A stretch of DNA of 37,729 nucleotides from a virus. Numbering within the stretch: position 1 is the stretch's first letter; each line of letters opens with the position of its first letter. The notes under the pieces were generated by a model that was not told where the DNA came from, did not search any database, and worked only from the letters and a program-made list of their open reading frames with translations. Below are positions 507 to 36,029 of this stretch, in pieces. The stretch is from the IMG/VR virus record IMGVR_UViG_3300005827_000050, positions 1-37,729 of that record; one strand, written 5' to 3'. The position numbers were made by a program, and so were the translations under genes.

Positions 507-728
507 ATGGAAGAAACATATACATTTAGTCGTGCGCTTCACATGATGCGATATGGTGGTAAGAAGATGAAACCTATAAATATGATGGACGGACGATGGT
601 ATTATGTGGAGAACAATAAATTATACACAGGTCAAGTTTACGAAATGACTATGCCTAACTTTCCGATTAAAAACACAATGAGCCACGATGAAATAATGGG
701 TTCATGGATTGAGGTAAAAGATGCGTAA
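507..728 (+). CDS. DUF2829-like small protein (Tad2-like candidate)
   Basis: 73 aa. The N-terminal TFSRALHMMRYGGKKMK and C-terminal SHDEIMGSWIEV resemble the F-x-x-AL-x-x-K-x-GKK ... DW-x-IV signature of DUF2829. Confidence 0.5.
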   Translation: MEETYTFSRALHMMRYGGKKMKPINMMDGRWYYVENNKLYTGQVYEMTMPNFPIKNTMSHDEIMGSWIEVKDA

Positions 729-987
729 GCGTCCATGTATGAAATCAGCACGAAAATCGATTGATGAGTTCTTTGCAGAGCCTTATATTATTGTTGAGCG
801 TATCCAAGAGCATTTGCAATCTCTTACACCTGAAAAAGTTTTTCAAGAGGATGTTGGGGCTGAACTTGGAATCCCGCCAAACGTGCTATCGATTCTAAAA
901 ACTCGTAAGGCGCAATCATTCCTACCATTTGCTTTTAAATGGTGCTTAGACAATGGGTTAGATATTTCTAAGTTTTGTGAGCGATGA
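721..987 (+). CDS. putative HTH DNA-binding protein
   Basis: 88 aa. The segment QEDVGAELGIPPNVLSILKTRK looks like a helix-turn-helix. Overlaps the upstream gene by 8 nt. Confidence 0.5.
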   Translation: MRKRPCMKSARKSIDEFFAEPYIIVERIQEHLQSLTPEKVFQEDVGAELGIPPNVLSILKTRKAQSFLPFAFKWCLDNGLDISKFCER

Positions 988-2206: not shown

Positions 2207-2408
2207 TGTATTTTGTTGCGGCGCATTTAGATAGATTGAAATCGTCTTTAATACTTGCACATGACGGCAATTCAGTCTTTAAAGGCTTTGGAGTTCCGCA
2301 AGGTAGATAAATTACTTCTTTTCCGCACCCACTAAAAAGTAGAGCGAAGAACATCCATAGCATTATCGCAATCACTTTTATTTTGGTCATAAATGAATGT
2401 TGTGACAT
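2151..2408 (-). CDS. o-spanin (outer-membrane lipoprotein, Rz1-like)
   Basis: Signal peptide plus lipobox LLFSGC. The small Cys-containing mature part overlaps the 3' end of the i-spanin gene in another frame. Confidence 0.75.
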   Translation of the reverse strand: MSQHSFMTKIKVIAIMLWMFFALLFSGCGKEVIYLPCGTPKPLKTELPSCASIKDDFNLSKCAATKYITLDGDYQALSEAFDSCK

Positions 2409-2649
2409 ATTGAACCTTTGTTTGGGTTTTGTATTGAATCTCTTTTACTTTCTTTTCGACTTCTACCGTCTTAACTTTTTGTTGCTCTGAATAGTTGCCA
2501 ACAATAGCAAGTTGTTCTTTGGCTGATTGTATGTCACTACGAAGCGTTTTAGCATACCACAGCGTAAGAAGTAGCAATACTAATAGCATTGACGCAATGG
2601 TAGATAAAATCACGATAGCGTATGTTTTAAGCCAATCAAACATTATCAA
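2332..2649 (-). CDS. i-spanin (Rz-like)
   Basis: N-terminal TM segment (YAIVILSTIASMLLVLLLLTLW) followed by a charged coiled-coil-like region. Sits at the end of the lysis cassette. Confidence 0.75.
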   Translation of the reverse strand: MIMFDWLKTYAIVILSTIASMLLVLLLLTLWYAKTLRSDIQSAKEQLAIVGNYSEQQKVKTVEVEKKVKEIQYKTQTKVQYVTTFIYDQNKSDCDNAMDVLRSTF

Positions 2650-3729: not shown

Positions 3730-4047
3730 TTATGTTCCAGCTGGATATGATGGAATAATCGGCAAAGTTGTGCTGATAGTATCTATACCACTGACTATAT
3801 CACGCAATGATTTTGTATAAGTCTGCCAGTCAAGTGGAAATTTTACCCCTGCTTTTAGGCATCTCAATGCTACTAAATCAGTTTTATCAAGCTCGATTTG
3901 TGCGTTAATTTTTATCAAATCATGAATTTGATTTGCTTCAAGTTCTATAACTTGTTCAGGAGTTGCGACAACATATCCGATTTGAAAATCGGTATCTTTG
4001 CCCATTAAAATACCATCTTGATTAATATATCTTTTAATTTCTTCCAT
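3730..4047 (-). CDS. tail fibre assembly/chaperone protein
   Basis: The ATG at 4047 is preceded by GGAGAGGA and starts 3 nt after the fibre stop. The C-terminal DLVALRCLKAGVKFPLDWQTYTKSLRDI resembles tail fibre assembly (DUF4376-like) proteins. Confidence 0.6.
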   Translation of the reverse strand: MEEIKRYINQDGILMGKDTDFQIGYVVATPEQVIELEANQIHDLIKINAQIELDKTDLVALRCLKAGVKFPLDWQTYTKSLRDIVSGIDTISTTLPIIPSYPAGT

Positions 4048-4049
4048 GA

Positions 4050-5435
4050 TTAAAATCCTCTCCATGCTTTCATTTTATATGACCAATCTGCGGCGGTCAT
4101 AAAGGTGAAGTTTGTCCCATTTTTATATGATGACCCCCATCCATTCTGACCAGCTGTGATTTGATAAGCATTAATGCTTGTTCTAACTACGTTATTTGTA
4201 ACTATCCCCGAAGCTCCAAACGCAGGAGTAAGGTCAATAATGTCTCCAACTGCATATCCCAGATCGATTGTTGTACATAGGGCTAACTCTTTATGCTCAA
4301 CTTCTTTATATCCGATATTGTGATTTTTGCTTACCTGAGTAGAAGCAGATGGCAAGGTAGCTATCCATGGAGTTTCATATCTGCCGTTAAGTGCATATGT
4401 CACAACACTTGTGACAGTTGATGCTCCTGTTACAGCTTCACCAATAGGCACACGCCATGATTGAGGAGCAGTTGAACCGTTTCCAGTATACCCAGTCATT
4501 TGACCGATATTAAATGTGATTAGGTTATTTGTAGTAGCTGGTGTTCCGCCAAATTGTTCTAAGTGTGCGACTGTGTTTGCCGATAGCGTAACTGTTCCGT
4601 TTGTTGCTACATCGGCGTATAGGTAGTTAGTTGCATTTGCGGTAAGACCTGAGATTGTAGTATCTGCGCTAATTGTACCGATACGATCATTTGATACTTT
4701 CCCCCCTGCCGCATGAATTGTTATAGGGACGGTTGTTGCGGCAATATTTACAGCAAGCCCTGTTCCGATTGATATGAAGTTAGCATAACCATTTGAGTCC
4801 ACGGAACCTGATTGAACAGTTTGACGTACTCCAGTGATAGTAGGTATTAATAAATCACCACTTCCTAAAAGTGCAGTACCATTTACAGTTTTTATGCTAG
4901 TACCTGATACAAGAATAGTTTGATAAAATGTGTCAAAATAGGTCTTCATAGTAGCTTTTAAATTTGCCCATGTAAGTTTCTTTAATGAGAATGATGATGA
5001 GCTATCAATTAAAGGTAATTCATCTGCATCTACTGGAGTTGTTTTTGAAGTAGATGCGTGAGTTAGTGAAGCAATTCCTGCCCCTTTCCACGAAGTAGGT
5101 TCGCTTATAGGGTTATTTGATGTATTTATAATACAAATATAATCAGATCCGCTATAAGTCCATGACTCCCCTATTAATGCAGAAGATACCCCTTGCACAA
5201 ATGTGCCTTTATAGTTTGCTGCTGTTGAAGCCACATTAGCACTATTTAAAGCGATTTGTGTATTACTATTAACCTCTACTGCTACTATGTTCATCTCATT
5301 ACCCATTGAGTTCATTTGAGTAATACGTGAATTTTCCTCGCTTAAACGTGAGTCCATATCGGAAGAAAACGTAAGCGGATTTTGCCTAGATGGTGTGTGA
5401 GTAAACAATGAAATAAAAGTAGAAATTACACTCAT
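4050..5435 (-). CDS. tail fibre / receptor-binding protein
   Basis: 461 aa, rich in Ser/Thr/Gly/Asn. Lies between the tail tip protein and the fibre chaperone. Confidence 0.7.
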   Translation of the reverse strand: MSVISTFISLFTHTPSRQNPLTFSSDMDSRLSEENSRITQMNSMGNEMNIVAVEVNSNTQIALNSANVASTAANYKGTFVQGVSSALIGESWTYSGSDYICIINTSNNPISEPTSWKGAGIASLTHASTSKTTPVDADELPLIDSSSSFSLKKLTWANLKATMKTYFDTFYQTILVSGTSIKTVNGTALLGSGDLLIPTITGVRQTVQSGSVDSNGYANFISIGTGLAVNIAATTVPITIHAAGGKVSNDRIGTISADTTISGLTANATNYLYADVATNGTVTLSANTVAHLEQFGGTPATTNNLITFNIGQMTGYTGNGSTAPQSWRVPIGEAVTGASTVTSVVTYALNGRYETPWIATLPSASTQVSKNHNIGYKEVEHKELALCTTIDLGYAVGDIIDLTPAFGASGIVTNNVVRTSINAYQITAGQNGWGSSYKNGTNFTFMTAADWSYKMKAWRGF

Positions 5436-5467: not shown

Positions 5468-6376
5468 TTATAAAATGCCTTTTATAGTAGTTGAAACATA
5501 AGAGTAATTTATCCCTCTATGAGTTGTAGTGAAATCTTGCCAAGTCCCATATGTTAGTAAATTCTCTACATTTGAGTTAATAGTTTCATCCATAATAAAA
5601 AGACATGGTATAGCATCTAAATCTATAATCTTTCTCTTATGGTTTGGTATAAGTTCAGTTTGTACACGTACTTGAAAAGTATCAAGATTGACGGCTCCTA
5701 TATGGGTTGCTGTATATTCTCCGAAAACATTTATATTCCGTATTGAATAAGATTCTAGTCCAAGACTTCCGCCCATTGCAGTATCTCCAACAAAATAACT
5801 GCGACCGAATACTAAACGACCAATCTTTGCATAGTATCCAGTAGTATTAGTAAGAGTAATTTTGAGTTTTGCCCCATTTCCATAAATAGGTAATACTTTT
5901 AGACTACTTCTTGAAAATTTAAAAGGGTTAAAGCAATATGTAAAAAAATCTACAACACTACTCTCATCTTGAAGTGATTGTGAAATAGTATAAACTACAT
6001 TCCCTAGTGAATCTTTTAATTCATAAGCAACGCTGATCCCATCAATATCAAGAAGTGCTACATAATCATAGTTATCATCTGCTATCTCTATGACTATCTG
6101 ATTCATTACAGCAGTTTGTGAGTCTGTACGACCGTCAAGCATAGCATAGTAGTTAGATGGTCGCATTAATACCCAAGGACATAATGGGTCTGTCTGTAGG
6201 AATGTTGAAGGTGATGCGGTTGTATTGGTTAAATCAGCTCCGCTATAGGCATAAATATAATGACCGTCTCTTGCTTCACTCCCATATGAGTATACTGATC
6301 CACTACTCCAAGCCGTTTCTGTTTCGCTAAAATTTGCAGTAATATAACTTGTTACTTTATTTTCTACTATTGTCAT
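5468..6376 (-). CDS. minor/distal tail protein
   Basis: 302 aa. Its start overlaps the tape measure stop (6376). Call is based on position. Confidence 0.6.
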   Translation of the reverse strand: MTIVENKVTSYITANFSETETAWSSGSVYSYGSEARDGHYIYAYSGADLTNTTASPSTFLQTDPLCPWVLMRPSNYYAMLDGRTDSQTAVMNQIVIEIADDNYDYVALLDIDGISVAYELKDSLGNVVYTISQSLQDESSVVDFFTYCFNPFKFSRSSLKVLPIYGNGAKLKITLTNTTGYYAKIGRLVFGRSYFVGDTAMGGSLGLESYSIRNINVFGEYTATHIGAVNLDTFQVRVQTELIPNHKRKIIDLDAIPCLFIMDETINSNVENLLTYGTWQDFTTTHRGINYSYVSTTIKGIL

Positions 6377-9300
6377 TATGCTACCTCTACAATAATTGCA
6401 TTACCATTTGTAACTGCTCTCATAAGCTGATTAAGTTTAATAATTTCCTGATTCATACTATTCATAGCCTCCATAATACTTAGGTTTGTGTTTACTACTG
6501 CCGTATTAGTATCTGTCGATGTAGCAGTAGCGTTTACTGTTGTACTATTACCAGTATAAATTGTAGGTGTGTATGTAGTGTTATTGGTTGGCATAGTTCC
6601 ATAAGTTCTATGTGCTCCAAATGAAACTGCACGTGCTAATTGCAATGCTGTAACTCTTGAAGCTTGCAGTGCTTGATTAGCTTGTTTCTGTGCTTCATTT
6701 TGAGCCTCTATCGCTTTTGTATAAGCATCGGAACTATTAGCTGCATTTTTTAGAGCATCCCCTAAACTTTGCCATTGCTGTATTGTTTCTGGGGTAAAAC
6801 TTCCTTTTACTGCTTGATTATATTTATCAATATAATTTTCAAGCGTAACCCCATTTGTACCAATTAAAGATTCAACAGCATTAAGGTCTTTTTTTGCCCA
6901 CTCAGACTGAAGTTTTAGAGATTCTAAAGTATTACCACTTCGCTCTAAAGTATAAACTTCAAATCCTCTTTTATATTGTAGAAAATTAGTTATAGTAGTA
7001 GAAAATGCCTCTTGAATTGCTACTCCCATTTTTCCGGCTAACTCACTCCAAGAATTGTAGAAAGTATCTGTTAGGGATTTATTATCTATAAATGCTCGTA
7101 TAAAAGCCTTGTCAATCTCATTAAAAAATGATGTACCTGAATACTTACCTGCACGTACAATAATATCATCAACCCCGCCAAGTTGACCAAGCAAATAATC
7201 ATATGTTGTGAATATTGCCATGATTGACTTAGATTCTTTTTCGCTTAATCCAGTATATTCAGTCCATGATCTAGATTTAAACCAAGATTTTTTATTGTAA
7301 TCGATAAAAGAGCTAATAGCCCCTGCCCCTGATTCTGTATTAATATCAGAAAATGCTTGAATACCTGACCCAGTGACTTTTGTTTTACCGAACATCCCCC
7401 CGATAACTGAACCAAGAGCTGCACCGATACCCGCTCCTATTGCAGTTCCTACACCTGGAAGAATTATGGTTCCTGCTACTCCTCCAATTCCTCCTCCTAT
7501 TGCTCCTCCTACTCCTGCTTTGGTGTTTGCACCAAATAACTTATCTCCAATTGAACCTAAAGCATATCCACCAAGAGCACCTACACCTGCACCGCCTAAA
7601 AGCTGACCAGCTCCCATTGCGCCCATCCCAGCAAATTCTCCACCTGTAAAAACAGAACCCGCTCCTATCCCAAAGTTAGATATCCCTGCCGCTGTGCCAG
7701 TTAGCCCAAGCGCTTGTGCTCCTCCTGCCAAATATTGAAAACCAGTAGCGATATTAGCCCCAATAGCCGCTAATCCTCCAGTTAAAACTTGATAAGCTGT
7801 ATTAATAGATGAAGCTGTGCTTACTATATCCCCTACATTTCCAAGATTATCACTGCCAGCCTTTGTAATTTGTCCTGCCGCATCGTATACAGTACCACCC
7901 GCTGTAGTTGTAAACCCTGCTGAGTCAGTAGTTACACCTTGCAATACGCTTCCAGCTGATAATCCAAGCCCTGCAAGTAATGAAGAACCTCCAGAAGCAT
8001 TTCCAATGATCATAGATTTTAATCCGCCTATCAATGAGTTTGACAACATAGAAGAGGCAGAACGAGCGATAGAAGTAGTAAGTGAAGACCAAAAGTCTTT
8101 TAACCAATTTCCGAACTTATCCCACTTGCCAGTCATAGTGTCGAAGATTTGCTTATCCATAGCTTTTTCAATACCATCAAACATATCAATCCAGAACTTA
8201 TTACGCTCCTCAAATTCTTTTTGGCGCATTTCTGAAAGTTTTTTAGCATCTTCCATCTCTTTTTTAATGCGTTCTTCATTTGTTTTTTTAAGTTCTTTAG
8301 CGGTTTCATCATCAAGTGAAATAACGGATTGTGAAGCCCACTCAGCGATCATTACAGTATCTTGACCGCTCTTTAGTTTAGCCGTTGTCTCGTTTGCAAT
8401 ATCACGTAATTTATTCTCGTATGTGCCGTGAGTTAGCTTGAATATTTGATCTTCCGTTTTTTCGGTTTCTTCGATTAGTTTTTGAGACGCTCTTTTTTCT
8501 TGATCTTCTTTCTGCTTATCATCTCTATCTTTTTGTGCCTTAATTCTTTTATTTTCACGTTCTTGTTCTATAAGTGCTTTTTTACGCTGTTCCACACTTA
8601 ATTTATCAAGTTCTACTTGTTTAGACTTTGCCTCTAATGCTTTTGCATCTGCTATGTTTCTATCATACTGTTTAGTAATAGATACCATTTTTTGATTAAC
8701 TTCAACTTCTGTTAATCCAATTGCAATTAGTGATTTTTTAGCCTTTAATAGCGATGCAGTTCTTTTTTCTTCTTCTGTAGCTTTTGCTTTATCTGATGCG
8801 CTCATAAACTTTGATTGTTCTGCTATTTGTTTTGCTATTTCAGCTTCTTCTTTTTCTATTTTTAATCGTCTTTGTAGAGCTTCTGCATGAGCGTTTATGT
8901 TAGCTACAAATGTACGATCATCTTTAACGGATTGAGGTGTGAAAAAGTCCTGGGCTTTTCCCAGTAATTTTGCTCCTGTTGAAATATTTGTACCAACATT
9001 TGCAGCTACTACTTGAGATAATTTGCCCATTACCCCTATAGCTTTTTGCCCAATAGTTTCTAGCTGAGAAATGCCCTCTTTATGAGTATTAATCCATGCC
9101 GACATAGCTCTGCTATTGCTTATTAAATCATCCGTAAATGATCCAGTACCGCTGCTTAATTCTGTAATTGCATCTGCAAGCATCCCACTTGAGCCAGTCG
9201 CATCGTCAAACTTTGATATTGCATCTGATAGATTATTTTTTAGAATTTGAAATGCTCCGCTAACGGTATGAGGCATTTGTCTTGCTTCTGCTTCTAAGTC

Positions 9301-10188
9301 AGTCATGCTTCTAAGTAATGCGCCACCAACGATTCCAGCGGTTAACTTACCATCTGCTGCCATATCCCGTAATGCACCAGTAGTTACCCCTAAGCTATCT
9401 GCAACGGCTTTGAGTAATCTTGGTGAGTTCTCTGCAATAGAGTTAAATTCATCCCCACGTAATACCCCCGACCCCATAGCCTGAGCAAATTGTAGTGTTG
9501 CGCTTGTTGCTTCTTCGGTTGATGCCCCACTGACTAATAGTGCTTTAGAGAATGAGCTTGTAATATCCAAAGTAGTTCTAAGGGAACCACCTAATTTACC
9601 TATCGGATCGGCTAGCTTTACATATAGTTTACCAACTGAATCTAAAGATACTTTATTCTCATTTGCTATAGTTAAAAGTGATTTTTGTATACCTGCTAAA
9701 TTTGCACTTTCTCCACTTACAAGTTTAATACGGGCTTGTAAGTTATTCATGGCATCTGATGTTTGAATAGCTTTTGAAGCTAAAGCAGTGAATCCAATAA
9801 GACCTATGACAGCCGATAATTTACCCATCGCACCTGATAGCATATCAGTATTTTTAGATGAATTATTCATCTCATTCGATGCTTTTCGGTTTGCCTCTGT
9901 GAGCTTATTTTGAGCTATTATATTTTCTTTTGTAGCTATTGAAACTTTATTATTGGCTTCCGCTAATTTTGCCTCAGCTTTTGCTAGTTCTTCCGCTGAT
10001 TTTGTAGTACCGTCCTGCGCTTTTTTAAGACGTTCCACATCATCTGAGGCTTTTTTTGATGCTTCTTGAAGTTTACGAAGTGAGTTTGCTGATTTTGCGG
10101 CTGATACGTCTGCTTGAAGCAATGCATTACTTAGACCGCCTATTTTGGCTTGACCATTAACACTAACGTCCACTTCAAATTTAGCCAT
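6376..10188 (-). CDS. tail tape measure protein
   Basis: 1270 aa. Coiled-coil N-terminus, a tape-measure core motif (GSGVLRGDEFNSIAENSPRLLKAVADSLGVTTGALRDMAADGKL) and a Gly-rich hydrophobic segment. Lies downstream of the G/G-T chaperones. Confidence 0.92.
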   Translation of the reverse strand: MAKFEVDVSVNGQAKIGGLSNALLQADVSAAKSANSLRKLQEASKKASDDVERLKKAQDGTTKSAEELAKAEAKLAEANNKVSIATKENIIAQNKLTEANRKASNEMNNSSKNTDMLSGAMGKLSAVIGLIGFTALASKAIQTSDAMNNLQARIKLVSGESANLAGIQKSLLTIANENKVSLDSVGKLYVKLADPIGKLGGSLRTTLDITSSFSKALLVSGASTEEATSATLQFAQAMGSGVLRGDEFNSIAENSPRLLKAVADSLGVTTGALRDMAADGKLTAGIVGGALLRSMTDLEAEARQMPHTVSGAFQILKNNLSDAISKFDDATGSSGMLADAITELSSGTGSFTDDLISNSRAMSAWINTHKEGISQLETIGQKAIGVMGKLSQVVAANVGTNISTGAKLLGKAQDFFTPQSVKDDRTFVANINAHAEALQRRLKIEKEEAEIAKQIAEQSKFMSASDKAKATEEEKRTASLLKAKKSLIAIGLTEVEVNQKMVSITKQYDRNIADAKALEAKSKQVELDKLSVEQRKKALIEQERENKRIKAQKDRDDKQKEDQEKRASQKLIEETEKTEDQIFKLTHGTYENKLRDIANETTAKLKSGQDTVMIAEWASQSVISLDDETAKELKKTNEERIKKEMEDAKKLSEMRQKEFEERNKFWIDMFDGIEKAMDKQIFDTMTGKWDKFGNWLKDFWSSLTTSIARSASSMLSNSLIGGLKSMIIGNASGGSSLLAGLGLSAGSVLQGVTTDSAGFTTTAGGTVYDAAGQITKAGSDNLGNVGDIVSTASSINTAYQVLTGGLAAIGANIATGFQYLAGGAQALGLTGTAAGISNFGIGAGSVFTGGEFAGMGAMGAGQLLGGAGVGALGGYALGSIGDKLFGANTKAGVGGAIGGGIGGVAGTIILPGVGTAIGAGIGAALGSVIGGMFGKTKVTGSGIQAFSDINTESGAGAISSFIDYNKKSWFKSRSWTEYTGLSEKESKSIMAIFTTYDYLLGQLGGVDDIIVRAGKYSGTSFFNEIDKAFIRAFIDNKSLTDTFYNSWSELAGKMGVAIQEAFSTTITNFLQYKRGFEVYTLERSGNTLESLKLQSEWAKKDLNAVESLIGTNGVTLENYIDKYNQAVKGSFTPETIQQWQSLGDALKNAANSSDAYTKAIEAQNEAQKQANQALQASRVTALQLARAVSFGAHRTYGTMPTNNTTYTPTIYTGNSTTVNATATSTDTNTAVVNTNLSIMEAMNSMNQEIIKLNQLMRAVTNGNAIIVEVA

Positions 10189-10230: not shown

Positions 10231-10952
10231 TCACTTATTCCGCTGTTTTGCCTTGATATTTTCGCTATTCATTTCCATAATAAATTGTAAGTATTCTTTA
10301 GGAGGCAAAAAGCAGTTTTTGAGTAAGAATTTTAAATGGTGAAAATCTAATGCGCCATTCTCTCCGATGCGCTGAACCGATTTAAAGCAGTATATAATTA
10401 GTTGCGAGATGTGATCGTCTTGATCGATTACCGTGATAGTGGAGTTGTTTTTAATTTCTTCGGTGTCCCGTTCGTCAAACGTGCTAAAGTCCTGAGCTGA
10501 TGCCAAGTCTTTAGCGTATGATATTAGGCTTTCGAAGCGTCTTTTTTTTTCTCTTCAATGTCTTTTTGAATGGTATCTAGTACAGCAGAATATCCGTACT
10601 CTCTTGCTAGTTCCATAATCTCTTTGTCGCCCTTCATGCACAATTCAAGACGCATCTTAGATACTTCCTCAACAAGATTGAACCCATCAAGCTGTTCGAT
10701 CTTATCATCGAGTAGTGCCATTGATTTTTGTAGCTCTTCAATAACCTTTTCATCGGTGTTATCTTTGGCAAAACGAGCACGTAGGACTTCGATTTTATTC
10801 TCGATCTTTTTCGCTTCTTTGCCGAGCTTGATAAAGTTTTCAGACAATGCTTTCATGTCTTTTGATTGTTTTTTAGTTGGCTCTGAAAGAGTACCTTTGT
10901 AAACGTCGTCTCCGACTTCAATGGTGAATGGGTAATCAATTGTGAATTTCAT
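10231..10952 (-). CDS. tail assembly chaperone G-T fusion (programmed -1 frameshift product)
   Basis: The -1 frame is open from the A9 run (10542..10550) through ORF 10231..10506. I translated it by hand as ...KKRRFESLISYAKDLASAQD... Confidence 0.75.
10524..10952 (-). CDS. tail assembly chaperone (G-like)
   Basis: 142 aa, acidic and coiled-coil-like. Lies directly between the tail tube and tape measure genes and ends just after the slippery A-run. Confidence 0.8.
   Translation of the reverse strand: MKFTIDYPFTIEVGDDVYKGTLSEPTKKQSKDMKALSENFIKLGKEAKKIENKIEVLRARFAKDNTDEKVIEELQKSMALLDDKIEQLDGFNLVEEVSKMRLELCMKGDKEIMELAREYGYSAVLDTIQKDIEEKKKDASKA
10542..10550 (-). promoter_or_regulatory. -1 ribosomal slippery site (GAG AAA AAA AAA GAC)
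   Basis: Nine consecutive A on the coding strand, 5 codons before the G stop codon. The downstream ORF is in the -1 frame. Confidence 0.75.
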
Positions 10953-11024
10953 AAGTTAGCCTCTTAGAATAAATTTATAGTAATTTTACCACAAATATGT
11001 TATTATTCTTTCGTTATGAGATTC

Positions 11025-11091
11025 GATAGGGGGAATTTTCCTCCAAGTCGTTCCCTCTATCAAAATTCATAAAAGACTTGGAGGTCTTTCA
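11025..11091 (+). promoter_or_regulatory. structured 5' leader with SD-sequestering helix
   Basis: Helix A pairs 11025-11034 with 11052-11061 (10 bp, one G.U). Helix B pairs 11040-11049 (CCTCCAAGTC) with 11075-11084 (GACTTGGAGG, which contains the SD). An alternative hairpin pairs 11029-11034 with 11039-11044. Confidence 0.6.
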
Positions 11092-11898
11092 ATGTCGGAA
11101 AAATCAAATATAAAATATATAGCAATGCTAAGCGGTGGTCAAGACAGCTCAGCAATGACGTTAAGACTCTTAGAGTTAGGTAATCCAGTTGATTATATAG
11201 TATTCTCTGATACTACATTGGAATTTGATGAAATGTACGAATATATTGATAAGCTCGATGCTTTTTTTCAGCGTAAGTATGGGATAGCTATTACAAGGTT
11301 AAAGCCTAAATCGTCTTATGAATCATGGGTGTTTAGTGATATTGCAGACTATGGAAAATTAGGAGGTCAGATTAGAGGTGTACCTCTTATTGCTTCGCCT
11401 TGCTATTGGAGAAGAGAAGCCAAAGAGCTTCCGTTTCAAAGATGGCTAAAAGAAGAACAAATTACTGAATATAAAACTTATGTAGGTTACGTTTACAATG
11501 AGTATGATCGGTGGAAAAATGCTTGGCAATATAATGCACTAACTCCACTTGTTGATTGGAAATGGAATGAGCCAGAGGTGCAGAAATATCTCAAAGAAAA
11601 TATGATGGAAAATAAATTATATCAGCATTTTGAGCGATCAGGTTGCGGAATATGTCAAAAGCAAAGCATTGAGGCAAAATATCAGCTATATAAAAATTAC
11701 CCTAAGCAATGGACTTATATGAGCGAATTGGAAACAAGATTAAAAACAGAGAGAGAGAACAGAGGAGAGGCAGTTGTGCCTTCTTTTCATACTTCATTAT
11801 TCACTTGGGATATGGAAAAACTATTTAAACAAAAAGATAAACAGCAGACTTTTGAGTTTGAATTTGAGCCAGTTCAGGACTGCTTCTGTAAGATATAA
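11092..11898 (+). CDS. PAPS reductase-family PP-loop protein (stand-alone moron)
   Basis: PP-loop SGGQDS. VFSDTTLEFDEMYEYI resembles the DTGxEFPET motif of the PAPS reductase family. CGIC near the C-terminus. It is the only plus-strand gene inside the minus-strand structural block. Confidence 0.75.
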   Translation: MSEKSNIKYIAMLSGGQDSSAMTLRLLELGNPVDYIVFSDTTLEFDEMYEYIDKLDAFFQRKYGIAITRLKPKSSYESWVFSDIADYGKLGGQIRGVPLIASPCYWRREAKELPFQRWLKEEQITEYKTYVGYVYNEYDRWKNAWQYNALTPLVDWKWNEPEVQKYLKENMMENKLYQHFERSGCGICQKQSIEAKYQLYKNYPKQWTYMSELETRLKTERENRGEAVVPSFHTSLFTWDMEKLFKQKDKQQTFEFEFEPVQDCFCKI

Positions 11899-11914
11899 GC
11901 CTCTTTTGAGTTCA

Positions 11915-11943
11915 CGGATAAGTCGAGGCTAATCCCTTATCCG
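11915..11943. terminator. hairpin between convergent genes (candidate bidirectional terminator)
   Basis: CGGATAAG (11915-11922) pairs with CTTATCCG (11936-11943): 8 perfect bp with a 13-nt loop. There is no clean U-tract. Confidence 0.45.
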
Positions 11944-11953
11944 CTATTCGCTA

Positions 11954-12922
11954 TTAAACGAAATGCCCGTGAGTGATCTCGATTGCTTTCCCTGCTGAAT
12001 CACCTTGTAGCAACCAAACAAATTCACGTTTAAGAGTTGATTTATCGGTGCTGTCGGTGAACGCTGATGCTTTAGCCAATGCACAATCAATTTTAACTGA
12101 TTTACCATCTACCAGAATACCAGCATTAGTTCCAAGTTTGACTACGATCGCTTCAACTGTTTGAGCCGATAATTTGTTAATTGCCGCATTATAATCGGTG
12201 TTTTCAGGGTAGAATGTGGCAGTGACTTTAATCATATAGTCATTGATATTATACTCTTTGATTCCCATGCCATAGAAGTCATCGACTTGTGCGCCCATAT
12301 CAATTTTTATGGAGTCGGCTTTAACAGCAGTTCCTCCCGCCGTGATAACGTCAGCACATCCTACGATAAGACACGGGTTAGTATTAAGCGTAACTGATGG
12401 AAGTGCCGCCGATGCCGCTACCCCTGCATTGTCAAGGTATGCGCTAAATGTTGCGTTTAGCATTGCTGCTTTACCGATTGCAAAATCAAAGTTTACTGCC
12501 GCTACTGCCGAATTAGTAGCAGTTTGTTTATACCCGTCAAGGAAAGCCGCAATACACCCCTTAGCAGGTGTTTGGCTATTGGTATAAACAACTTTACCTG
12601 TTAATCCTGTACCTGTGATAGTTTCGTCGAACCCTGCAATTTTAAGAAGCTCTCCATATTCAGGCGGAGTTTCTAGGGTTGTACCTGCAATATTTGATGA
12701 ACGCATTTTATGTGCAACTTGAACCGATACCGTAGCTTTGCAGGTATCCGCATAACTGTCGTTTGACCCTAATCTTCCGTTTACACGTTTAAATTCTTCT
12801 ACCGGGATAGAAGGGTTTACTACTAATTCAGACTCGACTTCTAAGAAGCCAGCTGGATAAACTGGTTGCGTAGCTCCTGCTTTTACAAACAAAGCCGAGC
12901 GTTTGGTGTTCATTAATGCCAT
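11954..12922 (-). CDS. major tail (tube) protein
   Basis: 322 aa. Lies between the tail terminator-like gene and the G/G-T chaperones. Call is based on position. Confidence 0.7.
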   Translation of the reverse strand: MALMNTKRSALFVKAGATQPVYPAGFLEVESELVVNPSIPVEEFKRVNGRLGSNDSYADTCKATVSVQVAHKMRSSNIAGTTLETPPEYGELLKIAGFDETITGTGLTGKVVYTNSQTPAKGCIAAFLDGYKQTATNSAVAAVNFDFAIGKAAMLNATFSAYLDNAGVAASAALPSVTLNTNPCLIVGCADVITAGGTAVKADSIKIDMGAQVDDFYGMGIKEYNINDYMIKVTATFYPENTDYNAAINKLSAQTVEAIVVKLGTNAGILVDGKSVKIDCALAKASAFTDSTDKSTLKREFVWLLQGDSAGKAIEITHGHFV

Positions 12923-15094: not shown

Positions 15095-15268
15095 CTACTT
15101 CTTAGTAGTTTGCTTCTCTTTTTTAGTGAGAATAGGAACATCACGCATTTGTAGGTTTGCGCCTTGAAACTTTGCATCGATGATGGTTAATCCTCGATCA
15201 AGTGCGATTTGCTCCACATTTTCATTATATTGGTCAATAGGAAAATCTAAGTACCAACATCCACCCAT
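15095..15268 (-). CDS. hypothetical 57-aa protein (below the ORF-track cutoff)
   Basis: Hand translation: MGGCWYLDFPIDQYNENVEQIALDRGLTIIDAKFQGANLQMRDVPILTKKEKQTTKK. The start overlaps the upstream stop (TAATG). Confidence 0.4.
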   Translation of the reverse strand: MGGCWYLDFPIDQYNENVEQIALDRGLTIIDAKFQGANLQMRDVPILTKKEKQTTKK

Positions 15269-15384
15269 TATTTACCCTTTTTCTCTGGAGCTTCAAGCGT
15301 ATAACCTGCAGCCAACCATTCTGCAACATCGATTTTATGTGGCACTTTATACTCTTTTCCGTCTTTGTCGTATACGATTGTCAT
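15268..15384 (-). CDS. hypothetical 38-aa protein (below the ORF-track cutoff)
   Basis: Hand translation: MTIVYDKDGKEYKVPHKIDVAEWLAAGYTLEAPEKKGK. Fills an otherwise empty gap. Confidence 0.4.
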   Translation of the reverse strand: MTIVYDKDGKEYKVPHKIDVAEWLAAGYTLEAPEKKGK

Positions 15385-23307: not shown

Positions 23308-23451
23308 CTATTTTTTTGCTTTATTTGCGCGATATTTTTTCATTTTACAAGAGTTAGAGCAAAACTTTTTTACTTTTAACCCTACAATTGTTTTTCCACA
23401 TACCCCACATGATGAATATACTATTTTACGGAATTGATGAATACTACTCAT
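23308..23451 (-). CDS. 47-aa zinc-ribbon protein (CxxC ... FCSxxC, TRASH/FCS-like)
   Basis: Hand translation: MSSIHQFRKIVYSSCGVCGKTIVGLKVKKFCSNSCKMKKYRANKAKK. The ATG overlaps the stop of the IbrA-like gene (ATGA). Below the ORF-track cutoff. Confidence 0.6.
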   Translation of the reverse strand: MSSIHQFRKIVYSSCGVCGKTIVGLKVKKFCSNSCKMKKYRANKAKK

Positions 23452-24650
23452 AATATTCCTTTTTTTGATTTTTTAATCTCTTTAAATCTGATATATGCAT
23501 CTGATTTAGGTTGTGACTGTCCTAATCCTTTACACCAATAATCATTTCTCAAAATACACTTAGCCATTCTTCTCCACGATGGTGCCCATTGTTTTGCCTC
23601 AAGTTCTGCTGGCACTTCATCAGGTATGGTAATATAACCTCTGTCTTGCCACGACTTGATAAACTTTTTAAATCTATCTTTGTAATGCATACCTGTTTTC
23701 CTTGGCAGTGTTTGTAATAACAAATTTGTAAAGCTCTCCCATGTGTGACCGTGTGGTTTTGATATCTTATTATATCCTGTCATATTTCCACTTTCTTGAA
23801 TATATAAAGCTCCACTATTTGCACCATTTACACGGTTTACTACTTTTCCCCACGTTTCAGGCTCTAAGATATGATATAACCATAAGCCTTGACGCTGATC
23901 GTCTCCGTATGGCTGGCATAGGCGTTGCTGTGATAATTTTACACCTGCCATATTCATTTTGTCGTAAATCTCATTATGTCCTAATGAGTTAAATTTACCA
24001 TGAAAACGCCAAATATCTTCTGTTTTCCAGTCATAAATAGGGTAAACATTATAAAGGTTGTCTTCTACTTTAGAAGTCCAGTGATAATCGTTAAACATAC
24101 CATCAATTTTATATGAAGTAATAGCACGATAACGGTGTAGGCTTTCATCTGCACGAATACCAATAAACGCAGCTGTTGGCTGATCTCCTCCGTACCATTC
24201 ACCAAACAACACCATAAACTCTTCAAACTCCATTTTATCAATAAAAAATGGGTAATCTTCTGCTACTTTTGCTTCTTTTGGTTTTTGTCTTACCCAAATA
24301 TCTTTCTTTTCTTCTTCCCAACAGCACCAGCGAGGATCGTAATTTGTAAGCGCATTTCTAAGCAATAATGGAACGCATACCCAATGTAAATCTATTACGT
24401 CTTTGTATTCTTCTATCATGTAGTGAATATGACGTATAGTATCATCGTATTGAGCTTCAAGGTCAATAATTAATAATCCAACAGTACGATTTCTTTTTCT
24501 TGCTTCTTGCAATACTAAATGAGTCATTACCGAACTGTCTTTACCTCCTGAAAAAGAGATATAGATATTATTAAAACCGTCAAAAATATTACTTACACGC
24601 TCTTTTGATGCAGTATATACATCAATATTTTTATATAATTTGGTTCTCAT
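23448..24650 (-). CDS. IbrA-like PAPS reductase-family PP-loop protein with C-terminal extension (DUF3440-like)
   Basis: PP-loop SFSGGKDSSVM, then IIDLEAQYDDT. 400 aa, the size and layout of IbrA-type proteins. Its start abuts the ParB-like gene stop (24650). Confidence 0.75.
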   Translation of the reverse strand: MRTKLYKNIDVYTASKERVSNIFDGFNNIYISFSGGKDSSVMTHLVLQEARKRNRTVGLLIIDLEAQYDDTIRHIHYMIEEYKDVIDLHWVCVPLLLRNALTNYDPRWCCWEEEKKDIWVRQKPKEAKVAEDYPFFIDKMEFEEFMVLFGEWYGGDQPTAAFIGIRADESLHRYRAITSYKIDGMFNDYHWTSKVEDNLYNVYPIYDWKTEDIWRFHGKFNSLGHNEIYDKMNMAGVKLSQQRLCQPYGDDQRQGLWLYHILEPETWGKVVNRVNGANSGALYIQESGNMTGYNKISKPHGHTWESFTNLLLQTLPRKTGMHYKDRFKKFIKSWQDRGYITIPDEVPAELEAKQWAPSWRRMAKCILRNDYWCKGLGQSQPKSDAYIRFKEIKKSKKGIL

Positions 24651-25825
24651 TAGTATAGCTCCGACTGACGAAATGGTTTTGCTTCTTCCATTGATACTTC
24701 ATCACGCCCATTATTTTTTAGCCAAATGTTAAGATATTTTAGTGCCATATTATCAGCACGCAACTGCTCATATTCGTTAAGTAAAAACCAACCGGCTCTA
24801 TATGTTGCAGGTATTCCAGTTGCATAACAAACAGAAGCTTGACCAAGCCATGCAATACGGTTAAATGCAATATTTGTTAGATTTTGCTCGCATGAATATT
24901 TCCAATTATGTACAATATAATTTAATGCCTCTTCAAACTTATTTATGTCTTTTAAAAAGTTTGCGAATTTTTGTTCCGCTTCTTCTTTTTTCATTCCGTC
25001 AACTGAGGTATTAAAAAACCCTGCGGCAAAACATTCCCACTTATCATATGTGTGAAAAATACGGTCATAAGAAGCATTAACTGTATTCCTGAGATTTAAC
25101 CGTTCCATTTCCATTTCTGTAACTTCATCTGTTAAATCTTCCCATGCTTCAAAATTAGCCTCGGTAACATCCCAAGACATAGAAAACTCTTCATCTTTAA
25201 ATAAGTCTTGAAGCCCTGTAATTTGGCAAAGTCTTAAAACTTCATCCTCATCCATCCCAAGCTCTTTACAAATACGAGAATTAGCCCAATTTCTATTTTT
25301 AAGCTCAACAACAATGTCAGACATTGCGTCAACTTTATGCTTTCCTCTTGCTCTGTTATGCCGAATTGTTGAAGCAATACGATCATTTTTATTTTCACGA
25401 TCTGAAGCCACTGCAACAATAGGAAGATAACCGTGAATTCTACTTTGAATTTCATCGCACTCTTTACCTACTCTGTGACGGTGAAAACCATCAATTACCT
25501 CATGATCTACTTTTTCGCTGTTAGACCATGTAACAATAGGCTGTGTATACCCATCGGAAGCAATAGATAGTCTTAATAGCTCCATTTCAGGTGGTGCTAC
25601 CGTATTAGGGTTATAGTCATTAGCCCCAACAGTAGTATTTTTAACCCATTGCACTAAATCTACTGGCTCAGACTTAAAAGGACTAATTTCATGTATTAAA
25701 ACACGCATTAAATTAATACAATCAACTTTTGCATCTAGCTCTAAGTTTTTTAACTTTTCTAGTAAGCATCTAAGCTCAATCTCTACATGAGATAATACAC
25801 CTTGTTCTGCATATTCAAACTTCAT
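24650..25825 (-). CDS. IbrB-like ParB/Srx-fold nuclease-domain protein with unassigned C-terminal domain
   Basis: VIDGFHRHRV and RHNRARGKH motifs. The ATG at 25825 follows AAGGTGG (the track start at 25867 is TTG). The last roughly 170 aa (DKWECFAAGFF...AWLGQASVCYATGIP...) are unassigned. Confidence 0.7.
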   Translation of the reverse strand: MKFEYAEQGVLSHVEIELRCLLEKLKNLELDAKVDCINLMRVLIHEISPFKSEPVDLVQWVKNTTVGANDYNPNTVAPPEMELLRLSIASDGYTQPIVTWSNSEKVDHEVIDGFHRHRVGKECDEIQSRIHGYLPIVAVASDRENKNDRIASTIRHNRARGKHKVDAMSDIVVELKNRNWANSRICKELGMDEDEVLRLCQITGLQDLFKDEEFSMSWDVTEANFEAWEDLTDEVTEMEMERLNLRNTVNASYDRIFHTYDKWECFAAGFFNTSVDGMKKEEAEQKFANFLKDINKFEEALNYIVHNWKYSCEQNLTNIAFNRIAWLGQASVCYATGIPATYRAGWFLLNEYEQLRADNMALKYLNIWLKNNGRDEVSMEEAKPFRQSELY

Positions 25826-25887
25826 AAATCCACCTTTATTTAAGTTACGCAAATAATAACGTAACAAATATTAAACAACGCTTTAAT

Positions 25888-35369: not shown

Positions 35370-36029
35370 ATGATGCCTGAGCTTATAAGTATAGTCGGTA
35401 AAAAAAATTACGGAGGTAAAAAAAGAATTTTTGCCAAGTATAAATGCCCATATTGTTTTACTATATATGAAACTTTAAAATTTAATATTCCAAAAAATGG
35501 GAAAACAAATTGCGGGTGTATGACTAACGAATTAAAAAAGCATACTACTCATAACCTTACCAGTACAAAGCTATACAGGGTTTGGTCTTCCATGAAACAG
35601 AGGTGTTTCAATATAAAATGCACTGGTTATGAAAATTATGGCGGGCGCGGAATATCAGTGTGTGAGGAGTGGAAAAATGATTTTATTTCGTTCTATGATT
35701 GGGCAATGCAAAATGGATATAAAGAAGGTTTAACTATAGACCGAAAAAACAATGATGGAAATTATGAACCTAATAATTGCAGGTTTGTTTCAGTCAAAAT
35801 TCAAAATATGAATAAAAGGTACAAAGGAGTTAAAAATTTTATAGGAGTTGAGAAAAAAGACAATAAATTCATTGCGAGTCTTTCTATTAACAATAAAAAG
35901 CATTATATAGGTTCTTTTGATACAGAGCTTGAAGCATCTCTAGCAAGAGATTTATATATTTGCCAAAATAATCTTCAACATAAACAAAATTTCAACTTAA
36001 AGGAAAACGAATGCCACTACCAACAGTAA
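35370..36029 (+). CDS. HNH-type homing endonuclease with C-terminal AP2 DNA-binding domain
   Basis: YRVWSSMKQRCFN...YENYGGRGISVCEEW...LTIDRKNNDGNYEPNNCRF, followed by an AP2-like segment YKGVKNFIGVEKKDNKFIASLSINNKKHYIGSF..ELEASLARD. Confidence 0.8.
   Translation: MMPELISIVGKKNYGGKKRIFAKYKCPYCFTIYETLKFNIPKNGKTNCGCMTNELKKHTTHNLTSTKLYRVWSSMKQRCFNIKCTGYENYGGRGISVCEEWKNDFISFYDWAMQNGYKEGLTIDRKNNDGNYEPNNCRFVSVKIQNMNKRYKGVKNFIGVEKKDNKFIASLSINNKKHYIGSFDTELEASLARDLYICQNNLQHKQNFNLKENECHYQQ

Follow-up and report, generated by a model that had tools for sequence, protein, structure and literature searches.

Leader and gene at the locus

The window analyzed here is positions 1 to 37,729 of IMG/VR record IMGVR_UViG_3300005827_000050, a siphovirus-like phage genome of 37.7 kb, and the subject is the 5' leader of one of its genes, the open reading frame (ORF) at 11092-11898 on the plus strand, which encodes a protein of the PAPS-reductase superfamily. 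A preliminary description, made from the letters of the sequence, had pointed to a lone plus-strand gene amid minus-strand genes; this was borne out, as 11092-11898 is the sole convincing plus-strand gene within a minus-strand block that spans about 2151 to 31545 (about 29 kb). Other plus-strand ORFs of at least 80 amino acids (aa) within that block gave no family matches, and they overlap or face small minus-strand ORFs. The leader contains a long hairpin whose loop can pair with the Shine-Dalgarno (SD) region of the gene, and its parts are listed below.

10998-11006, plus strand: predicted extended -10 promoter, TGTTATTAT, followed by 6 nt to G11013
11013-11091, plus strand: 5' untranslated region (UTR) of 79 nt, the conserved leader
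11015-11023, plus strand: 5' strand of the lower stem (P0) in minimum-free-energy folds
11025-11036, plus strand: 5' strand of the upper stem (helix A), paired with 11050-11061 in 12 bp, two of them G.U
11037-11049, plus strand: apical loop of 13 nt, UUUCCUCCAAGUC, with the anti-SD segment at 11040-11049
11050-11071, plus strand: 3' strands of the upper stem (11050-11061) and the lower stem (11063-11064 and 11066-11071)
11072-11089, plus strand: SD region, with the 3' arm of helix B at 11075-11084 (GACUUGGAGG) and the SD, GGAGG, at 11080-11084
11092-11898, plus strand: PAPS-reductase-superfamily ORF of 268 aa, from profile matches and alignment of homologues

G11013 was taken as the transcript start (+1), a prediction from the -10 spacing and from comparison with L008, a 1.5-kb metagenome contig (relatives are referred to by L numbers), since the block of identity between the two begins 7 nt after the -10 hexamer in both. 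The predicted start lies upstream of the anti-SD, so a transcript beginning there would carry it, as the preliminary description supposed.

Both helices of that description, and a GGAGG ending 7 nt before the ATG at 11092, were read directly from the sequence where they had been placed. Helix A, as first noted, joins 11025-11034 (GATAGGGGGA) with 11052-11061 (TCCCTCTATC) in 10 bp, one of them G.U, and helix B joins 11040-11049 (CCTCCAAGTC) with 11075-11084 (GACTTGGAGG) in 10 perfect bp. What had been overlooked is a larger hairpin of 20 bp (11015-11071), of which helix A forms just the upper part and with which helix B is in competition. In its lower stem, 11015-11020 pair with 11066-11071 and 11022-11023 with 11063-11064; C11024/A11062 is a 1x1 mismatch, which is also C.A in L114 and recurs as a 1x1 interruption in most other variants. 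An equivalent lower stem of different sequence is present in L114, L235, L203, L250, and L254. The complementary SD region begins 3 nt past the base of the hairpin. A small local hairpin that also holds the SD had been missed as well: it pairs 11072-11078 with 11083-11089 around the loop UGGA, is weak (-5.4 kcal/mol), is kept in L089 by a two-sided change (A.U to U.G), and is found in L254 too.

The 82-nt leader folds with z = -3.2, and none of 200 shuffles folded as well. The duplex between the loop and the SD region has an energy of -18.8 kcal/mol, equalled by none of 2000 shuffled loops. A descriptor for a hairpin loop pairing with a GGAGG SD before a start codon matched only the window leader and its relatives in 0.6 Mb and had no matches in 20 shuffles. 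A further pairing that had been proposed, in which the anti-SD is itself sequestered by an upstream G run, is present in the window (11029-11034 with 11039-11044, 6 bp, one G.U) and is not kept in L114 or other variants; as a conserved anti-anti-SD element it was rejected, as GGUGG against CCUCC gives a U.U mismatch in L114.

Two other signals in the leader were considered and set aside. An 18-codon upstream ORF, MRFDRGNFPPSRSLYQNS* at 11016-11072 on the plus strand, has its start codon in the lower stem and terminates 2 nt short of the 3' arm of helix B. It is probably incidental. A leader peptide was rejected as a family feature: a similar ORF occurs in L207, L089 has a start codon followed directly by a stop, L235, L227, and L203 have none, and in L114 the upstream ORF runs open into the main frame. 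A minus-strand promoter, TTGATA-17-GAAAAT at 11063-11035, is not conserved in L114.

Search for related leaders

At least nine distinct versions of the leader were found, in uncultured phages, and four parts are common to all of them: the promoter, a 5' hairpin of 17-26 bp, an apical loop complementary to the SD, and a weak local SD hairpin. The nearest is in L008, where 828-903 is 100% identical to 11013-11088 of the window (76 nt). A covariance model built from the window and L008 (R1) found L089 (34.4 bits, E 3.9e-5); it scored the window at 112.9 bits and L114 at 43.9 bits. L114 and L116 were found with a pattern for the two arms of helix B and have the same loop and SD region with a wholly different stem. 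A looser pattern combined with a hairpin filter found L235, L227, L203, and L207 and also matched the look-alikes L246, L241, and L198. L250 and L254 were chosen solely by protein similarity to the L114 endonuclease (P0134 and P0082) and are thus an unbiased sample; both have the same leader architecture as the rest of the family.

The shared layout is strict. In ten members TATAAT (TATTAT in the window) is followed by 6 nt and a purine, which is G in nine and A in L114, and seven of the ten carry a TGn extension of the -10 element. The UTR measures 79-85 nt, the hairpin begins 1-6 nt from +1, the apical loop has 13-19 nt, the SD lies 6-9 nt past the hairpin base, and the ORFs begin ATG-TTA/TCR (ML.. 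or MSE..).

Searches elsewhere were negative. Rfam at gathering thresholds gave no match in the whole window, and a permissive scan of 10850-11250 returned noise only (FinP, E 0.66; a wrong-strand match to PK-repBA, E 6.2). Among 50,697 cultured-phage records, BLAST found no match to the region or to either leader type. Exact-pattern scans with window-type arms gave, beyond L114 and L116, chance matches only (such as L118 and L111-L113), and a 20-mer scan of genome contigs gave a chance site in Calothrix only. Distant AP2/HNH homologues (L177-L187) had no leader, and no description of the leader was found in the literature searched. As judged by comparison of sequences, the leader is a conserved RNA element that is portable between phage genes.

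Evidence for the two pairings

All variants form a hairpin of 17-26 bp, with z between -2.7 and -5.3; from the loop down, it is made up in most of them of 11-12 bp of upper stem (the full range being 9-12), a 1x1 mismatch, and 6-10 bp of lower stem. In pairwise comparison of the first three variants, 9-14 of the 19-20 stem positions had changed on both sides and still paired. The pair counts used an alignment made from each sequence's own fold, so that the 100% pairing of the long hairpin holds by construction and is no test of it. In ten variants together, 27 G.U pairs and 3 A.C juxtapositions were counted in the sense hairpins; for 8 of these variants the sense fold had the lower energy of the two strands, with a margin that reached 15 kcal/mol. 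This excess of G.U and the greater stability of the sense strand point to a structure that acts in sense RNA rather than in duplex DNA or an antisense transcript.

The loop:SD helix has 8-11 bp in nine variants and occurs in four sequence versions, listed here as loop arm / SD arm.

Window, L008, and L114: CCUCCAAGUC / GACUUGGAGG
L235 type: CCCUCCAAGGC / GCCUUGGAGGG
L250: UCCUUACACC / GGUGUAAGGA
L254: CUCCCAACCU / AGGUUGGGAG

The L250 and L254 versions were reached through protein homology alone. L089 and L207 keep 8 bp of helix B, to which L089 adds a bulged extension. Covariation of helices A and B in relatives, put forward earlier as a check, was seen for both, each being kept with compensatory change. 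When loops were shuffled, 0-2 per 1000-2000 matched the observed duplex energy for the window, L114, L203, L250, and L254, and 12-14 per 1000-2000 did so for L089; this test excludes L207, L235, and L227, whose loops were split by the prefix fold. Comparison of helix B extension between family and non-family sequences was uninformative, because many non-family pattern matches are extended inverted repeats. The bases of the SD region serve two pairings and the ribosome, which may explain their full invariance in the window, L008, and L114.

Endonuclease cargo and the chimeric gene

The genes behind these leaders are mostly of another kind than that of the window. A C-terminal AP2 domain was detected in the cargo of L114, L089, L227, L203, L250, L254, and L246 (E 2e-5 to 8e-11), that is, in 7 of 8 endonuclease-like cargo ORFs tested, with scores above the Pfam cut-off in two (L250, 42.6 bits; L246, 38.7 bits). 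The cargo of L235 is a homologue with 50-54% identity and no Pfam AP2 match, and in L207 the contig ends 38 residues into the ORF. The endonuclease-like ORFs are 38-60% identical to one another. AP2-associated HNH homing endonucleases of phages have been described as the IPA-HNH class, in which the HNH part is missed by Pfam (PMC10448857); an N-terminal HNH domain was likewise undetected by Pfam in the AP2 cargo ORFs. By their sequences, the usual cargo of the leaders fits IPA-HNH-type homing-endonuclease genes (PMC10448857). In L114/L191, L203, and L254 the endonuclease cassettes are set backwards in tail modules, as the cassette is in the window. The preliminary description had overlooked that the leader is borrowed from homing-endonuclease genes.

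The borrowing extends into the coding sequence. The first approximately 17 nt of the ORF are ATGTCGGAAAAATCAAA in the window and ATGTTAGAACAATCAAA in L008, similar to the endonuclease 5' ends of L254 (ATGTTAGAAAATAATCAAA) and L089 (ATGTTAAAAAATCAAA), and the first approximately 6 codons in the window (11092-11109, ATGTCGGAAAAATCAAAT) resemble the 5' ends of endonuclease genes. Most PAPS-reductase homologues begin straight at MKYIAM and lack these codons, so the window gene is, on this comparison, a chimera of an endonuclease promoter, leader, start codon, and about 6 codons with a PAPS-reductase-like ORF.

The homologues are otherwise leaderless. Among 85 homologue loci with an assignable gene start, only L008 had the leader, and nearly all lie directly behind a co-directional gene in replication modules. 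The closest relatives of the window protein (P0002, 82% identity; another, 78%) are in replication modules, directly behind a co-directional gene and without the leader, and the closest relatives of the L008 protein (80-85%; P0036, 85%) are in replication modules, likewise without it. The window and L008 proteins are only 59% identical; their coding sequences agree at 87-93% over the first 200 nt and at about 50-60% thereafter. The L008 cassette sits at another site, adjoining head genes, whereas that of the window is in the tail module. Beside the L008 cassette, a 48-aa ORF (631-777, minus strand) is about 70% identical to the 38-aa ORF at 15268-15384 (minus strand) of the window, which indicates that the two phages are related though their cassettes are at different sites.

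Several neighboring arrangements were noted. In L089 (1372-3002), a PAPS-reductase homologue that is 39% identical to that of the window is followed by 170 nt and then by the promoter, the leader, and an AP2 endonuclease gene (227 aa), and this neighborhood shows how a fusion of leader and PAPS-reductase ORF could arise. The window itself has a resident homologue of the AP2-type endonucleases at 35371-36029 on the plus strand (tblastn identity 35-42%, E down to 1e-44); its ribosome site (AAAGGA) is ordinary, and at 7 bits with the covariance model it lacks the leader. In L254, a second endonuclease-like ORF (4001-4636, plus strand) lies backwards among tail genes, with a promoter-like GTATAAT site and no structured leader. 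Downstream of the L114 endonuclease gene, 2369-2485 (plus strand) forms two strong hairpins only on the sense strand (-26.7 versus -14.4 kcal/mol), so that the L114 cassette seems to have 3' structures of its own, unlike that of the window. On four phage contigs of 120-170 kb (L248, L231, L197, and L240), a T4 endonuclease V-like gene (Pyr_excise, E 3e-14) has its SD masked by a nested CCUCCAAGG...CUUGGAGG helix without a long 5' hairpin; this is a separate, T4-style SD sequestration.

Insertion site and gene neighborhood

The cassette stands between two tail genes that are neighbors in relatives. The features around it, and a further gene of the same superfamily, are as follows.

6376-10188, minus strand: tape-measure gene
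10524-10952, minus strand: gene in the chaperone position
10953-11091 and 11899-11953: noncoding flanks of gene 11092-11898
10958-10965, no strand: left copy of an 8-nt direct repeat, AGCCTCTT, at the junction reconstructed against L172 and L174
11898-11905, no strand: right copy of AGCCTCTT, starting at the last base of the stop codon
11915-11943, minus strand: hairpin of 8-9 bp after the tube gene, homologous to GCGGATAGG...CCTATCCGTGA after the L172/L174 tube gene
11954-12922, minus strand: tube gene
23448-24650, minus strand: IbrA-like gene (PAPS_reduct and DUF3440), adjoining a ParB-like gene (phrog_2159)

In L172-L174, whose tube protein is 59% identical to that of the window, the tube stop codon is followed by 70 nt with a hairpin and then by the chaperone start, with no cassette between. 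The view that the gene is an inserted, strand-inverted cassette with its own (predicted) promoter was thereby upheld. Between the repeats the cassette occupies about 10966-11897 (0.93 kb). The left repeat reads AAGAGGCT on the minus strand, where it is the SD of the chaperone gene 10524-10952, and the 8-nt repeat could be a target-site duplication or a microhomology for illegitimate recombination. No terminal inverted repeats were seen in 10966-11897 and no terminator lies inside it.

The hairpin at 11915-11943 had been read as a convergent hairpin bracketing the inserted gene. It is more stable on the minus strand (-18.6 kcal/mol, z -2.7) than on the plus strand (-14.1 kcal/mol, z -1.4) and has no U tract, and since its counterpart follows the tube gene in the cassette-less L172 and L174, it belongs to the tail operon. 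Late transcription must then read through the cassette antisense. Of the classic moron layout that had been suggested, the insertion between adjacent genes stood, and the hairpin proved not to be a terminator of the cassette.

Elsewhere in the window, the major head protein, portal, and large terminase genes were also identified. The IbrA-like gene comes directly after the ParB-like gene (23448-25867 together, minus strand), just upstream of the terminase genes. Between the chaperone-position and tape-measure genes lies a 91-aa ORF with a TTG start (10231-10506, minus strand). Opening of its ribosome site is predicted to cost a very high 12.1 kcal/mol, and the ORF may be the extension that frameshifting gives the tail chaperone, not a gene in its own right.

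Cargo protein

The ORF at 11092-11898 matches Pfam PAPS_reduct (PF01507) with 41.5 bits where the cut-off is 22.5 (E 1.9e-10); its match to phrog_424 has E 7.9e-38. With the IbrA-like gene, the phage therefore has two different PAPS-reductase-superfamily genes, as had been noted. The PP-loop SGGQDS occupies residues 14-19, of which S14, G15, G16, D18, and S19 are invariant in 21 homologues; Cys104, Cys185, and Cys188 (Cys185-x2-Cys188) are invariant among homologues, and a C-terminal DCFCKI motif, including Cys264 and Cys266, is kept in at least 90% of them. The cut-offs for true CysH (assimilatory PAPS/APS reductase) were missed (TIGR00434, 25.3 versus 165.1 bits; PRK02090, 20 versus 154), and the best Protein Data Bank (PDB) matches reached only E 0.3-0.6. 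The best models in a defense-system library were SspD (E 7.9e-14) and BrxP (E 3.5e-7). By these matches the product can be placed only in the PP-loop superfamily; a role related to DNA modification would be a guess. The closest homologues in cultured-phage records are in Helicobacter prophages (35-38% identity), a weak hint at the host.

Interpretation and alternative explanations

We think it fairly probable that the leader is a conserved, portable mRNA leader of endonuclease genes that keeps translation of its cargo low or conditional by two-state masking of the SD, and that it is fused here to a PAPS-reductase-like ORF. In the open state, the full hairpin would be formed, protecting the 5' end, and the SD would be displayed in the weak local hairpin, so that translation is possible. 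In the masked state, the lower stem would open and free its 5' strand, and the loop would pair with the SD region, blocking the ribosome; this helix B could be nested or could form a pseudoknot with the upper stem. The net effect would be low or conditional translation of the downstream gene, comparable to that of T4 homing-endonuclease genes. The switch might be triggered by a protein, by RNase III cutting the two-turn stem, or by slow post-transcriptional refolding. With the lower stem open, the geometry of an H-type pseudoknot is plausible, with L1 of 3 nt (UUU), L2 of 0, and L3 of 13 nt over the 12-bp stem. For the window, the nested fold of hairpin and local SD hairpin comes to -26.3 kcal/mol; the pseudoknot was roughly estimated to be lower, at -30 to -35 kcal/mol. 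For L235 and L227 the masked fold has the minimum energy, whereas L203, closely related to both, and the remaining variants favor the hairpin; in such models the family would lie near the balance point between the open and masked states.

A number of points weigh against this interpretation. The intact hairpin and helix B are incompatible, as a 3-nt linker cannot reach the loop when all 20 bp are formed, so helix B requires opening of the lower stem. In most variants, pseudoknot-free folding gives the long hairpin an advantage of 5-11 kcal/mol over nested helix B. Opening the ribosome site of the gene, also computed pseudoknot-free, takes 6.2 kcal/mol, in the mid-range of 49 window genes, so that masking depends on the pseudoknot or on partial melting; this is the main weakness of the masking model. 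The 8-bp core of helix B was imposed by the search pattern in four variants, and only L089, L250, and L254 are unbiased for it. Flanking covariation in the CCUCCAAG set is only suggestive, since shuffles reached the observed percentage paired in 33 of 500 cases and the covariation score in 55 of 500. The cargo in the window is no endonuclease, so the leader could be inherited baggage here, and the promoter and transcript start are predictions.

A bolder version, which we regard as speculative and rather unlikely, is that the leaders represent a new and widespread class of bistable cis-regulatory RNA in which a rigid 5' hairpin holds the anti-SD loop away from the SD and a specific event in trans flips the RNA between translatable and masked states. 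The events proposed are RNase III cleavage, a phage or host factor that opens the lower stem, and pairing with the antisense late transcript.

Processing by RNase III activates the lambda N leader and T7 early mRNAs, and its substrates are two-turn helices. The leader could be such a site, at which cleavage removes the 5' hairpin with the anti-SD loop and either frees the SD or exposes the 5' end to decay, the loop:SD pairing silencing unprocessed transcripts only. At 17-26 bp, and in most variants interrupted by a single 1x1 mismatch that lies 11-12 bp below the loop, the stems look like two-turn substrates, and as nested energetics favor the intact hairpin, a change of state may need a factor. 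There is, however, no sequence evidence for cleavage, RNase III sites have no strong consensus, and processing is compatible with SD masking rather than exclusive of it; as a full explanation we hold it to be unlikely. It is also improbable that the leader is a mere relic in the window, left without a selected role when recombination placed a PAPS-reductase ORF behind an endonuclease promoter and leader. The cargo does depart from the family norm, its N-terminal codons are chimeric, and the identity with L008 could stem from recent transfer instead of selection. Yet every structural element is intact, and the 76 nt are unchanged between alleles that differ by about 13% in even the adjacent, best-conserved 200 nt of coding sequence; with such divergence, 76 positions would all stay unchanged with a probability of about 2.5e-5.

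Control by two transcripts, in which long transcripts are silent and a promoter between anti-SD and SD yields short translatable ones at another time, is documented for I-TevI, segB, and mobE (PMC2988022). The interval 11050-11074 is A/T rich and has weak -10-like strings, but a start 7 nt past these would lie inside the SD, no consensus promoter lies between the arms in any variant (by a consensus scan; host promoter types may differ), and TATAAT-N6-purine precedes the whole structure in 10 of 10 members, which makes this scheme very unlikely here. We give still less credence to the idea that the inverted repeats work at the DNA level, as operator or recombination site, or within a minus-strand antisense RNA. 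An antisense leader transcript must exist late in infection, given the surrounding minus-strand operon, both strands fold well, and the best sigma-70-like match in the region (10/12) is TTGACC-17-TATATT at 11142-11114 on the minus strand; it faces left from within the 5' end of the gene, and RNA from this site would be antisense to the start codon, SD, and leader. That site, however, is built from the conserved KYIAM and SGGQD codons, so that any homologue using these codons would have it, as L008 does, the pairing is kept while the sequence is not, which argues against a protein-binding site, and the balance of G.U over A.C and the sense advantage reported above favor the sense RNA.

The riboswitch and RNA thermometer readings of the preliminary description fared worst, and we find a ligand- or temperature-sensing role scarcely credible. 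SAM-II, preQ1-II, and SAM/SAH riboswitches do mask the SD by a pseudoknot between a loop and the 3' tail (PMC7367207), and the leader has two nearly isoenergetic states. For the leader, however, Rfam gave no match at gathering thresholds, and the permissive scan gave none below E 0.6. No unpaired nucleotides that could form a pocket are conserved beyond the SD and anti-SD, as stems, loop flanks, and even helix B vary. The cargo is mostly a selfish endonuclease and not a metabolic gene, and the same leader is found on unrelated cargo. A thermometer is improbable because the 10-bp, G+C-rich helix B (-16.7 kcal/mol) and the stems (-20 to -30 kcal/mol) would not melt at physiological temperatures.

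Comparison with known systems and significance

RNA structures that sequester the ribosome site limit translation of the T4 genes I-TevI, I-TevII, I-TevIII, and segB and of Aeh1 mobE, and are also carried by the T4 late genes e and soc (PMC2988022). The present leaders share with the T4-family endonuclease leaders a cis-acting mRNA structure that pairs with the SD of an inserted selfish endonuclease gene, with presumed low or timed translation. They differ in that the T4 structure is a simple hairpin that includes the SD and is relieved by a late promoter inside it, whereas here a separate 5' hairpin of 17-26 bp carries the anti-SD in its apical loop, the sole conserved promoter is upstream of everything, and two folds compete. 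The genes are of AP2 type here rather than GIY-YIG or T4-type HNH, and the window and L008 carry a PAPS-reductase-like ORF in place of an endonuclease. In seg43(25), a free-standing endonuclease gene of Aeromonas phage 25, a very stable hairpin lies directly ahead of the ribosome site without taking it in (PMC2988022); it has no sequence relationship to the window leader. The leader is thus different from the known T4 kind in its loop anti-SD, its two folds, its lack of an internal promoter, and its capture by a non-endonuclease gene.

The Escherichia coli rpsO operator is an equilibrium between two hairpins and a pseudoknot, in which S15 stabilizes the pseudoknot and traps the ribosome. The likeness lies in hairpins that alternate with a pseudoknot, with a hairpin loop pairing around the SD and start codon; the protein partner there is S15, none is inferable here, and there is no homology. 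The SAM-II, preQ1-II, and SAM/SAH riboswitches likewise pair a hairpin loop with an SD-containing 3' tail, but they are 45-80 nt long with short stems and conserved pockets and control metabolic genes, in contrast to the long stems of the pocketless leader outside Rfam described here. Phage morons resemble the cassette as extra genes with their own promoter (here predicted) between genes that are adjacent in relatives. The window cassette differs from them in lacking its own terminator, in being antisense to the operon, in its endonuclease-derived regulatory part, and in having no evident role in lysogenic conversion.

For annotation, gene 11092-11898 is therefore better described not as a classic moron with a riboswitch but as a chimeric cassette with endonuclease-derived signals, without a terminator, set against the tail operon. 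To our knowledge, the control of free-standing homing-endonuclease genes has been worked out almost only in T4. The leaders reported here suggest that a different modular solution (promoter, 5' hairpin, and loop anti-SD) travels with AP2-type endonucleases in many uncultured phages. Capture of the module by ordinary phage genes would exemplify the exchange of regulatory modules at recombination boundaries promoted by nucleases. With about 80 nt and clear compensatory variation, the motif would be well suited to definition as a new RNA family and to use as a compact part for tunable control of translation. If the bolder version given above is true, the leader would be a portable switch for the timing and dosage of selfish endonuclease genes that can be captured by other phage genes.

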